Shown piece by piece: positions 2,652 through 5,663 of a stretch of DNA of 5,663 nt. The stretch spans positions 1 to 5,663 of IMG/VR virus record IMGVR_UViG_2703718818_000005; one strand, given 5' to 3'. Made by a program: the position numbers and the translations under genes. The stretch comes from a virus (lineage: Duplodnaviria; Heunggongvirae; Uroviricota; Caudoviricetes). Position 1 is the stretch's first letter. Every line of letters starts with the position of its first letter. The notes under the pieces were generated by a model. That model saw nothing but the letters and a program-made list of their open reading frames with translations, was not told the DNA's origin and searched no databases.

Positions 2652-2864
2652 ATGAAGAAATTACTGGTAACCGTAAAGCCTTTTCAGGGAACAATTCCGT
2701 TCCGTATTTTGCAGCGTGGTCGTGTTCTTGTTGAAGGTTCGTTCAGTGGTAAATGTACGCAATTACACTCCCGGACCTTTCAGGTGAATGCCACGAATGA
2801 AGAGCTAACCGTTGAGTGTACGATGAATGCCGCTAAATGCCGCATGGTATCCGCTGCATTTTGA
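2652..2864 (+). CDS. Hypothetical 70-aa protein between the spanins and cos (MKKLLVTVKPFQGTIPFRILQRGRVLVEGSFSGKCTQLHSRTFQVNATNEELTVECTMNAAKCRMVSAAF)
   Basis: ATG at 2652 with a GGAGAA Shine-Dalgarno 6 nt upstream; the track ORF begins at an in-frame TTG at 2634. No family recognised by eye. Three Cys, no obvious signal peptide. Confidence 0.5.
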   Translation: MKKLLVTVKPFQGTIPFRILQRGRVLVEGSFSGKCTQLHSRTFQVNATNEELTVECTMNAAKCRMVSAAF

Positions 2865-3087
2865 GCGACCTTATTATCCATGCGCGGTATTGTCGCCGTA
2901 TTCCCGTATTAACAGAGACCGCAGCCCGACAGGGAGACTCCTCTGCGCGAGTGTGCGGGGATAATCAAAAACGATACACACCGGGGTTTACCGCGTTAAC
3001 GGAGCGCGGCGTTGTCCCCTCATGGTCGCTGGTCCGGTGCGATGGTGGAAGAAACTGGATTTTGTTGCAACTGATAACCATTATCAT

Positions 3088-3117
3088 TTTCGCGGGTCCT
3101 TTCCGGCGATCCGGGCC
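3088..3117. other. cosQ-like cos-proximal segment upstream of cosN
   Basis: TTTCGCGGGTCCTTTCCGGCGATCCGGGCC is near-identical to the lambda right-end sequence TTTACGGGTCCTTTCCGGTGATCCGACAGG that I recall preceding cosN, where cosQ resides. Exact cosQ boundaries are not determinable from memory. Confidence 0.4.
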
Positions 3118-3139
3118 GTTACGGGGCGGCGACCTCGCG
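3118..3139. other. cosN, terminase nicking site; 12-nt cohesive end GGGCGGCGACCT at 3124-3135
   Basis: GTTACGGGGCGGCGACCTCGCG matches the lambda cosN core as recalled, and the 12-mer at 3124-3135 equals the lambda cohesive end. The following ~25 nt (CGCGCGTTTTCACTATTTATGAGATTTT) also track the lambda left end. It sits immediately upstream of a Nu1/A terminase pair. Confidence 0.85.
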
Positions 3140-3174
3140 CGTTTTCACTATTTATGAGATTTTTTGAGGGGGGT

Positions 3175-3183
3175 GGTTGTTGT
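3175..3183 (+). repeat. R3-like repeat GGTTGTTGT
   Basis: Exact 9-mer, about 50 nt to the right of the cohesive-end start, analogous in position to lambda R3. Confidence 0.5.
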
Positions 3184-3233
3184 TTAATTGTTTGGTATAT
3201 CTAATTGATAAGTAAGGTGAAAATAAAATAAAT

Positions 3234-3242
3234 ACAACAACC
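3234..3242 (-). repeat. R2-like repeat, inverted copy (ACAACAACC on the top strand)
   Basis: Exact reverse complement of GGTTGTTGT, 59 bp from the first copy. Confidence 0.5.
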
Positions 3243-3311
3243 TTACGATGTGTTTTGATGTCGTCAATGCGAAAAATGTCAATGATATCAAATGGTTTTG
3301 CAAAAACACAT

Positions 3312-3320
3312 GGTTGTTGT
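3312..3320 (+). repeat. R1-like repeat GGTTGTTGT
   Basis: Exact 9-mer, 33 bp upstream of the proposed Nu1 start codon. Confidence 0.5.
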
Positions 3321-3352
3321 ATCGCTTTTTATCGATGACTTATGGAGAGGAG

Positions 3353-3859
3353 ATGGCCTTTTTATTGAATAAAAGTGATATGGCCTCCTCCATCGGTATC
3401 TCTGTTCAGGCATTTGATAAATGGGGCGTTCCTCCTGTTGAACGTCGGGGGAGGGAAGTTTTATATGACGTTAAAACTGTACTGGAGATAGATCGCGAGC
3501 GGCGACAACACAATCAGAGAACACCTGATGACGGGGGAGAACTGGAGGAAAGGCTGCTTCGGGCCAGAGCTGAACTGACAGAAGAACAGGCTGTAGCTCA
3601 AAAACTTAAAAATCAGGTAACCGAAGGTAAGCTCATTGATTCAGACTTCTGCGTTTTCGCCCTCAGCAAACTGGCGATGGCATTGTCCAGTACGCTTGAT
3701 TCCATTCCGTTATCCATGCAGCGACAGTTCCCGGATTTAACGCCACGTCATATTGACCATCTGAAAACCCTTATTGCAAAGGGCGCAAATCAGTGTGCGC
3801 GGGCAGGGGATAAATTACCGGATTTGCTGGATGAATATATCAGAGCAACAACTGAATAA
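3353..3859 (+). CDS. nu1: Terminase small subunit, Nu1-like
   Basis: 168 aa from ATG 3353, preceded by GGAGAGGAG. Aligns by eye with lambda Nu1: EVLYD, FCVFALSKLAMALSSTLDSIPLSMQRQFPDLTPRHIDHLK versus lambda FCTFVLSRIAGEIASILDGLPLSVQRRFPELENRHVDFLK, and an EYI motif near the C-terminus. The track ORF start at 3248 is an in-frame upstream extension running into cosB; 3335 is another in-frame ATG without a Shine-Dalgarno. Confidence 0.88.
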   Translation: MAFLLNKSDMASSIGISVQAFDKWGVPPVERRGREVLYDVKTVLEIDRERRQHNQRTPDDGGELEERLLRARAELTEEQAVAQKLKNQVTEGKLIDSDFCVFALSKLAMALSSTLDSIPLSMQRQFPDLTPRHIDHLKTLIAKGANQCARAGDKLPDLLDEYIRATTE

Positions 3860-5663
3860 TATGATGGCTGCCGTTTCGGTTGCGCTGCAGCCTCTGGTCA
3901 GAGTTGTACCGATGACGGCAGTTGAATGGGCTGATCAAAATTATTATTTGCCTAAAGACTCCTCATACGGTGACGGCGAATGGAAAACGCTGCCATTCCA
4001 GATCGCCATCATGAACAGCATGGGGAATGATCAGATCCGCACTGTTAATCTGATTAAATCTGCCCGTGTTGGCTATACAAAGATGTTGCTGGGGGTGGTC
4101 GGGTATTTTATTGAGCATAAATCCCGAAACAGTCTGCTTTTTCAGCCCACGGATTCTGCCGCTGAAGATTTTATGAAGTCTCACGTGGAGGCGACGATTC
4201 GGGACGTGGCATGCCTGAAAGATCTTTCCCCGTGGCTGGGTCGTAAACATCGTGACAATACTCTCACGCTGAAACGCTTTTCATCGGGGGTGGGCTTCTG
4301 GTGCCTGGGTGGTGCGGCAGCAAAAAACTACCGTGAAAAATCCGTGGACGTGGTCTGCTATGACGAACTTTCCTCGTTCGAGCCGGATGTCGAAAAAGAG
4401 GGCTCGCCAACCCTGCTGGGGGATAAGCGTATTGAGGGGTCGGTGTGGCCAAAATCCATTCGCGGCTCGACGCCTAAAATCAAAGGCTCCTGCCAGATCG
4501 AAAAAGCGGCCAACGAGTCGGCGCATTTCATGCGTTTTTATGTGCCCTGCCCGCACTGTGGGGAGGAGCAGTATCTGAAATTTGGCGATGAATCCACGCC
4601 TTTTGGCCTTAAATGGGAGAAGGACAGCCCCGAAAGCGTTTTCTACCTCTGTGAACATCATGGCTGCGTGATCCATCAGTCTGAGCTTGACCAGAGCAAC
4701 GGGCGGTGGATCTGTGAAAATACGGGGATGTGGACCCGTGACGGTCTGACGTTTTTCAGCGCCGCGGATAATGAAATTCCGCCGCCGCGCTCCATCACGT
4801 TCCACATCTGGACGGCGTACAGTCCGTTCACCACCTGGGTACAGATAGTCTATGACTGGCTGGATGCACTGAAAGATCCCAACGGCGTGAAAACCTTTGT
4901 GAACACCACGCTGGGCGAGACCTGGGAAGAGGCCGTGGGCGAAAAACTCGATCACCAGGTACTGATGGATAAGGTTGTGCGTTACACGGCGGCGGTGCCT
5001 GCCCGGGTGGTTTATCTGACGGCGGGCATTGACTCGCAGCGAAACCGTTTTGAGATGTATGTCTGGGGATGGGCACCGGGAGAGGAAGCCTTTCTGGTGG
5101 ATAAAATCATCATTATGGGGCGTCCCGATGAGGAAGAGACGCTGTTACGTGTGGATGCGGCGATCAACAAAAAATACCGTCATGCAGACGGAACCGAAAT
5201 GACCATTTCCCGTGTCTGCTGGGACACCGGGGGGATCGATGGCGAAATCGTTTATCAGCGGTCAAAAAAACACGGTGTTTTCCGGGTGCTGCCGGTAAAA
5301 GGCGCATCTGTCTATGGCAAGCCGGTGATCACCATGCCAAAAACCCGCAATCAGCGGGGCGTGTATCTGTGTGAAGTGGGGACGGACACCGCAAAAGAAA
5401 TTCTCTATGCCCGTATGAAAGCCGATCCCACGCCTGCGGATGAAGCCACGTCGTATGCCATCCGTTTTCCTGATGATCCGGAGATTTTTTCGCAGACAGA
5501 GGCGCAGCAACTGGTGGCGGAGGAGCTGGTGGAGAAGTGGGAAAAAGGAAAGATGCGTCTGTTGTGGGATAACAAAAAGCGGCGTAACGAAGCGCTGGAC
5601 TGCCTGGTGTATGCCTACGCGGCATTACGTGTGTCTGTGCAACGCTGGCAGCTTGATCTGGCT
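3831..5663 (+). CDS. A: Terminase large subunit, gpA-like; 3' end beyond the window
   Basis: Open frame from ATG 3831 to the window end with no stop (611 codons). It starts MNISEQQ (lambda A starts MNISNSQ) and contains the P-loop-like KSARVGYTK (nt 4056-4082), VDVVCYDEL, the Cys/His cluster CPHCGEEQYLKFGD...FYLCEHHGC, HIWTAYSPFTTWVQIV and KKRRNEALDC, all colinear with lambda gpA as recalled. It overlaps the Nu1 3' end by 29 nt. Confidence 0.93.
   Translation, partial: MNISEQQLNNMMAAVSVALQPLVRVVPMTAVEWADQNYYLPKDSSYGDGEWKTLPFQIAIMNSMGNDQIRTVNLIKSARVGYTKMLLGVVGYFIEHKSRNSLLFQPTDSAAEDFMKSHVEATIRDVACLKDLSPWLGRKHRDNTLTLKRFSSGVGFWCLGGAAAKNYREKSVDVVCYDELSSFEPDVEKEGSPTLLGDKRIEGSVWPKSIRGSTPKIKGSCQIEKAANESAHFMRFYVPCPHCGEEQYLKFGDESTPFGLKWEKDSPESVFYLCEHHGCVIHQSELDQSNGRWICENTGMWTRDGLTFFSAADNEIPPPRSITFHIWTAYSPFTTWVQIVYDWLDALKDPNGVKTFVNTTLGETWEEAVGEKLDHQVLMDKVVRYTAAVPARVVYLTAGIDSQRNRFEMYVWGWAPGEEAFLVDKIIIMGRPDEEETLLRVDAAINKKYRHADGTEMTISRVCWDTGGIDGEIVYQRSKKHGVFRVLPVKGASVYGKPVITMPKTRNQRGVYLCEVGTDTAKEILYARMKADPTPADEATSYAIRFPDDPEIFSQTEAQQLVAEELVEKWEKGKMRLLWDNKKRRNEALDCLVYAYAALRVSVQRWQLDLA

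Follow-up and report, generated by a model that had tools for sequence, protein, structure and literature searches.

A lambda-identical cut site with N15/Monarch-type recognition elements in the probable cos of a lambda-like Escherichia coli prophage

The cos region described here lies in a 5,663-nt stretch of viral DNA (hereafter the window), which reads as the late region of a lambdoid E. coli prophage. With high probability it is the complete cosQ-cosN-cosB site of a lambda-like E. coli prophage, in which the elements for cutting and for terminating packaging are those of lambda, while the recognition elements belong to the N15/Monarch class. The initial annotation had read the region as a lambda-like cos, and this reading is borne out in that cosQ, cosN, the 12-nt cohesive end, a cosB with three R sites and the Nu1/gpA genes all occur in the right order, spacing and orientation. 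It is an ordinary and apparently intact cos and belongs to the already described Monarch kind. Judging from its elements, the site should be cleavable and the prophage viable.

The cut site was compared without gaps with the true phage ends. The nicking site cosN (GTTACGGGGCGGCGACCTCGCG, positions 3118 to 3139, top strand) shares all 22 positions with those of lambda and phage 21, whereas N15 matches at 19/22, because its cohesive end GGGCGGCGTCCG differs from that of the window at bases 9 and 12. A pattern search for GTTACG-GGGCGGCGACCT-CGCG with up to three mismatches returned this site, an exact match, and no other in the window; 200 dinucleotide-preserving shuffles yielded no match to the 22-mer, which rules out a chance resemblance to lambda. 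The earlier claim of a lambda-identical cosN and 12-nt end at this place is therefore confirmed. Inside the partly symmetric cosN, the 12-mer GGGCGGCGACCT (3124 to 3135, top strand) equals lambda bases 1 to 12 (12/12, and 22/22 with its flanks) and would form the 5' overhang of the left virion end, which would therefore begin at 3124. By analogy, the predicted nicks are 3123/3124 (top strand) and 3135/3136 (bottom strand). A text search of the literature for this 12-mer brought up nothing but single-molecule studies in which lambda-end oligonucleotides were used.

The packaging-termination element cosQ is represented by the heptamer GGGTCCT (3094 to 3100, top strand), a sequence that is labelled cosQ in the phage 21 record; its end lies 23 nt from the nick, a spacing equal to that from cosQ to the right genome end in the same record. 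Over the 30 nt before cosN (3088 to 3117), ungapped identity reaches 22/30 with lambda, 21/30 with phage 21 and 23/30 with N15, and the identical block within this segment, CGGGTCCTTTCCGG, includes the cosQ heptamer. Alignment to the lambda cos region, which the initial annotation had proposed as a check, thus gave 22/22 for cosN, 22/30 for the preceding 30 nt and 7/7 for cosQ, in agreement with its view that a lambda-like right end containing cosQ precedes cosN.

The site runs beyond cosN into a 150-bp cosB that is composed of R3, I1, inverted R2 and R1 and ends at about 3321. The extent first assigned to it, 3088 to 3139, covers cosQ and cosN, but the site for the start of packaging reaches through R3 to R1 of cosB. 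The 9-mer core GGTTGTTGT is present in exactly three copies in the window, at 3175 (top strand), 3234 (bottom strand) and 3312 (top strand), corresponding to cos coordinates +52, +111 (inverted) and +189. All three lie within 146 bp between cosN and the TerS start, with none elsewhere in the 5.6 kb, and 0 of 200 shuffles attained this count. R3 (GTGGTTGTTGTT, 3173 to 3184, top strand, with its core at 3175 to 3183) is predicted to be the main docking site of TerS. It occupies +50 to +61 and matches, at 11 of 12 positions and with a 2-bp shift, the N15 R3 GAGGTTGTTGTT, which was defined by block mutagenesis at bp 48 to 59 (PMC4669245). R2 (AAGGTTGTTGTA, 3233 to 3244, bottom strand) carries an exact inverted copy of the R3 core, and R1 (ATGGTTGTTGTA, 3310 to 3321, top strand) carries the third exact copy. 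An R2 opposite in direction to R3 and R1 is thus present in the window and is kept in its relatives, and R2 is inverted in the phage 21 annotation as well. The putative I1, an IHF-like site (TATCAATTAGATA, 3198 to 3210, bottom strand) flanked 5' by an A/T-rich tract, matches WATCAANNNNTTR at 12 of 13 positions; this consensus is weak and shows no enrichment across the window (7 matches against 5.5 expected). In cos coordinates this match lies at 75 to 87, and the I1 of phage 21, likewise on the bottom strand, is annotated at 74 to 86; the corresponding values for the window and phage 21 are 50 to 61 and 50 to 65 for R3, 110 to 121 and 107 to 122 for inverted R2, 187 to 198 and 150 to 166 for R1, and 230 and 189 for the TerS start codon.

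The spacer between cosN and R3 (3140 to 3172, top strand) is shared at 26/32 positions with phage 21 and at 22/32 with lambda, and the length of the G-run that closes it sets the distance from cosN to R3. This G-run (3165 to 3174) varies among relatives, with the R3 core starting at +50 in 8 loci, +51 in 72 and +52 in 5; the window, likewise at +52, has one extra G compared with most relatives, and its R3 is 1 bp farther from cosN than theirs and 2 bp farther than that of N15. Lambda is reported to tolerate a change of only 1 to 2 bp in this distance (PMC4669245). The spacer between R2 and R1 measures 78 bp from core to core versus 42 bp in lambda, and R1 is 12 bp nearer in 19 related loci. 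This R2-R1 spacer (3245 to 3311) contains a second IHF-like match (TATCAAATGGTTT, 3286 to 3298) that is partly conserved, and R2 and R1 are both located within a longer imperfect inverted repeat (3225 to 3256 with 3303 to 3329). Inside the TerS gene (3353 to 3859) there is no copy of GGTTGTTGT, even with one mismatch, and the N15-type rR2 site is therefore absent. DNA similarity to known phages breaks within this region: the cosQ-cosN side is up to 95% identical to many E. coli phages, and this similarity ends at about 3164. When 3140 to 3900 was compared with 50,697 phage records, almost no DNA match was found outside two parts of the TerS gene, namely its C-terminal half and a 128-bp N-terminal part that matches N15 gene 1 and one Enterobacter phage.

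Behind cosB lie the two terminase genes. TerS, the Nu1 homolog of 168 aa (3353 to 3859, top strand; Pfam Phage_Nu1, E value of 1.4e-21), follows the ribosome-binding site GGAGAGGAG at 3344 to 3352. TerL, the gpA homolog (3831 to 5663, top strand; GpA_ATPase, 1e-53; GpA_nuclease, 6e-71), is cut by the window end, and its frame is open across all 611 visible codons. Both genes are thus real, but the statement that the cos site lies directly upstream of them has to be modified, as 213 bp of cosB intervene before the Nu1 ATG. The list of open reading frames places the TerS start at 3248, while RefSeq, on identical copies, uses the ATG at 3353 that follows GGAGAGGAG. The TerS start is 3353 and not the in-frame ATG upstream; the frame in between is cosB and noncoding. 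The resulting protein is identical to WP_001405844.1, a RefSeq annotation in an Stx2a prophage.

TerS shares 38% overall amino acid identity with lambda Nu1 and 30% with phage 21 gp1. In its N-terminal part of about 45 aa, which includes SVQAFDKWGV, it is near-identical to N15 gp1; ISVQAFDKWGV is the same in both proteins, and SVQAFDKWGV aligns with the recognition helix of lambda. The C-terminal half is about 90% identical to proteins of the PhiR12 phages. TerL is 67% identical to its counterparts in both lambda and N15, and 93% identical to phage 21 gp2 over residues 18 to 611 (93 to 98% beyond the first 50 or so residues), while its first 50 aa show only 42 to 54% identity to any of the reference phages lambda, 21 and N15. 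The C-terminus of TerS would pair specifically with the N-terminus of TerL. The terminase is a mosaic of an N15-like TerS N-terminus, a PhiR12-like TerS C-terminal half, a poorly matched TerL N-terminus and a 21-like TerL body, and this fits the modular scheme in which the N-terminus of TerS reads cosB and its C-terminus binds TerL (PMC9026076). Because phage 21 and lambda have identical cosN sites, a 21-type TerL is expected to cut the cosN of the window. A search of TerS against PDB sequences gave no match at an E value of 0.01 or below, and the domain structure of lambda Nu1 could therefore not be linked to it by sequence.

The segment 3088 to 3900 occurs, at a coverage of at least 80%, in about 220 of 5,426 complete E. 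coli genomes. The Stx2a-converting prophage of strain 2015C-3905 is identical to the window over 3092 to 3867, encodes the identical TerS and carries a full lambda-like set of head and tail genes, in which the tail-tip gene J is frameshifted. Across cos, this strain and E. coli O91 RM7190 are 99 to 100% identical to the window. Related loci were collected with a pattern that required cosN, R3 and inverted R2, and this retrieved 83 IMG/VR viral contigs in addition to loci in E. albertii and another Escherichia species. R1 and I1 were left out of the selection, so that their conservation provides an independent test. The lambda 12-mer GGGCGGCGACCT is present in 85/85 of the pattern-matched loci, and R1 is present in 81/85. 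When 52 distinct sequences were aligned, the blocks that stood out as conserved were cosQ, cosN, the cosN-R3 spacer, R3, I1, R2 and R1; cosN is invariant, and cosQ and every column of the R1 core are at least 95% conserved. In the same alignment, cosB is more conserved than the first TerS codons. The TerS helix is the same in all 63 scorable phage-type loci with such a cosB; in a single one of them, a residue immediately behind the helix is substituted. Therefore, the DNA sites and the protein presumed to read them travel together, and it is directly observed that a cosB of this type goes with a TerS of this type. Among isolated phages, the collection of 50,697 records contains none with the cosB or the full-length TerS of the window, and the partial matches are confined to the cosQ-cosN side, the TerS C-terminus and N15 at 46% amino acid identity. 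Two metagenomic phage contigs with this cos type end close to the predicted nick, one (IMGVR_UViG_3300028982_000003) 4 nt and the other (IMGVR_UViG_3300008491_000050) 3 nt upstream of the start of GGGCGGCGACCT. Although 3 to 4 nt off the expected position, these ends hint at physical DNA ends near cosN in environmental samples.

The points that speak against an active site of this kind are the position of R3, 2 bp farther out than in N15, the weak IHF consensus, the lack of isolated-phage records with this cosB or full-length TerS, the small offset of the contig ends, and the view of 5.6 kb, since the prophage may carry defects outside it. The last of these leads to the reading that this is an idle cos, intact in sequence, in a defective prophage, which would never initiate productive packaging by itself and at most would be cut by a co-resident terminase of the same specificity and yield abortive or host-DNA particles. 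The window holds no more than a part of the prophage, J is frameshifted in the near-identical Stx2a prophage, no record among the 50,697 represents an isolated phage with such a cos type, and interference by prophage cos sites has been discussed (PMC4669245). However, Rz and TerS are full length, TerL is open over its 611 codons, and the element is found in about 220 complete E. coli genomes as well as in the metagenomic viral contigs ending near cosN. Furthermore, cosB is better kept than the adjoining TerS start in many lineages, which argues for continued selection on packaging. On balance, we consider an idle site unlikely.

A second reading is that the window phage has true lambda packaging specificity, so that its terminase and that of lambda would be interchangeable on each other's DNA. 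The lambda sequences of cosN and cosQ, the Nu1 and gpA families of the two genes and the ability of an N15-specific terminase to package lambda DNA (PMC4669245) would be in keeping with this. Yet the R core GGTTGTTGT bears no likeness to the CGTTTCC-type sites of lambda, the recognition helix reads QAFDKWGV versus RTIQNWQE in a TerS only 38% identical to lambda Nu1, and DNA of N15 specificity cannot be packaged by lambda terminase (PMC9026076), which makes the reading very improbable. The designation lambda-type that the region was first given consequently stands for the cut site (22/22) but not for recognition, because cosB and the DNA-binding domain of TerS are of the N15/Monarch type. Finally, although satellites of the EcCICFT073 family carry the same Monarch-type cosB, we rejected the reading that the window holds the cos of a PICI satellite hijacking a helper terminase, to which we give next to no weight, because this cos has Rz on one side and its own TerS and TerL genes on the other, has neither an rpp-like gene nor a second inverted cos in the window (an extra cos is found in none of the TerS-linked loci) and, where an Rpp-dependent PICI cos would show a short cosB, rpp about 100 bp on and no terminase, is followed by TerS and TerL.

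For the preferred reading, a complete lambda-like cos with N15/Monarch-type recognition, homology to lambda, 21 and N15 allows us to propose protein binding, nick positions and virion production for the prophage of the window. After induction, concatemeric DNA would form, and N15-type winged-helix dimers of TerS would dock on R3 and inverted R2. These two sites would be joined through bending of I1 by IHF, and R1 would play an accessory part. The C-terminus of TerS would hold the phage-21-like TerL over cosN, and TerL would then nick the top strand at 3123/3124 and the bottom strand at 3135/3136 to leave 12-nt 5' overhangs of GGGCGGCGACCT. The terminase would remain on the cosB end and dock on the prohead, and the DNA would be pumped in rightward, Nu1 side first. 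Packaging would stop at the next cos, where cosQ (3094 to 3100) and cosN would be required.

The pattern also retrieved 18 loci that lack an adjacent TerS, and three of these were inspected (L010, L025 and L094, the last in E. coli CFT073). They are PICIs of the EcCICFT073 family and encode an integrase, a primase-type protein, SSB, PerC, a capsid-E-like protein and a decoration-D-like protein. All 18 TerS-less loci have two face-to-face cos sites 536 to 772 bp apart (for example, at 2330-3162 in L025, 4161-4758 in L010 and 1530-2345 in L094). In the 771-bp form (8 to 9 loci), one of the two sites has a short cosB with an rpp-like helix-turn-helix gene behind it, and the other has, in the L025 type, a full Monarch/N15-type R3-I1-R2-R1 block; the second cos of EcCICFT073 itself has a 21-like cosB with CATGTCCGG repeats and is not of the Monarch type. 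The 536-bp form (8 loci) is without rpp, and both cosB types are present. Its segment between the two cos sites is oriented one way relative to the flanks in L010, L013, L023 and L030 and the other way in L015, L029, L054 and L089, and is bounded by 72-bp inverted repeats that span cosQ and cosN. Cutting at both cos sites would yield a fragment with two identical 5' overhangs, which could therefore rejoin either way; recombination between the 72-bp inverted repeats is an alternative explanation of the inversion. Other spacings are 542 bp (L070) and 637 bp (L071).

EcCICFT073 has been reported to have two functional cos sites with no phage cosB identified, and the reason for having two was posed as a question (PMC6092414, PMC6739421). 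The cosB types found here suggest that the second satellite cos may be a phage-type cosB cassette matched to the specificity class of the helper, with the class of the window prophage among them. A broader proposal, which we put forward tentatively and regard as rather doubtful, is that N15/Monarch constitutes a third natural packaging class in E. coli, that its prophages serve as direct, Rpp-independent helpers of PICIs, and that the second cos acts as a swappable cassette for helper matching.

The rest of the window contains a KilAC-type antirepressor gene (334-1029), a gene for a D12-class adenine methyltransferase (1376-2143) and Rz (2152-2628). The methyltransferase gene sits in the lysis region with the antirepressor and Rz on either side. 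It is missing in E. coli O91 RM7190, the closest relative examined, and present in others such as IBS28, so it is a variable inserted (moron-like) gene. A +1-frame open reading frame within Rz (2381-2587) has a lipoprotein-like signal (…LPLVVSAC…) and a proline-rich body, and looks like the outer-membrane spanin Rz1 nested in Rz. Two small open reading frames, at 1124-1255 (43 aa, hydrophobic) and in the Rz-cos gap at 2634-2864 (76 aa, no Pfam family), have hypothetical proteins annotated at the matching positions of the RM7190 prophage. The open reading frames that cross cos (2837-3157 and 3022-3204) likewise have no Pfam family, and the NCBI annotation of near-identical prophages leaves the interval from Rz to the terminase free of genes around cos, in line with the earlier statement that these frames are not genes. 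Scanned in full against Rfam at an E value of up to 1, the window gave nothing, hence no described RNA family lies in the Rz-cos gap. Between 2600 and 3500 no promoter-like sites were found, and the only terminator candidate is one weak hairpin-like match at 2688-2703, which is at chance level.

For annotation, these results would place the ends of the virion genome at 3124 and 3135, remove the cos-crossing frames from the list of genes and move the TerS start from 3248 to 3353. None of the findings in the window should surprise a packaging specialist. They do illustrate that a cut site identical to that of lambda is no proof of lambda packaging specificity, and that a prophage family with an Stx2a member combines N15/Monarch-type recognition with a TerL like that of phage 21. 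The range of co-resident prophages, cosmids and satellites that a phage can mobilise is set by its packaging specificity, which in strains with several lambdoid prophages and PICIs is relevant to how toxin genes and islands are transferred.

Among known systems, the closest is the Monarch group, which is described as having lambda-like cohesive ends, an N15-type R3 and recognition helix, and a three-R cosB with an IHF site but no rR2 (Feiss et al., PMC4669245). The window displays these published features, with a candidate for the IHF site, and its membership is judged by them: cosQ and cosN are lambda-like, cosB is complex, and the window has three R sites before the ATG, a putative IHF-like site, an R3 and a TerS recognition helix of the N15 type, and no rR2 in the TerS gene. 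The sister satellites of EcCICFT073 have the same cosQ-cosN and Monarch-type R3-I1-R2-R1 block, but no terminase gene beside this cos and a second cos in opposition, whereas the window has terminase genes and a single cos. N15 proper has the recognition helix of the window; however, its cosB is simple, with R3 and a remote rR2 in gene 1, and without the I1, R2 and R1 that the window possesses in addition to the lambda cohesive end, and its TerS gene starts at bp 89 instead of bp 230. Phage 21 is identical to the window in cosN and cosQ, has a similar spacer (26/32) and cosB layout, and encodes a TerL 93% identical from residue 18 on. Its R sites, in contrast, are of the TGTCGG type, its TerS is 30% identical, and its TerL differs over the first 50 or so residues, the region said to bind TerS, so that only the TerL body of the window is 21-like. 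Lambda agrees with the window in all 22 positions of cosN, in cosQ, in the R3-I1-R2(inverted)-R1 layout and in the location of the site just before Nu1 and A, but its R sequences and TerS recognition helix are unrelated in sequence to those of the window.
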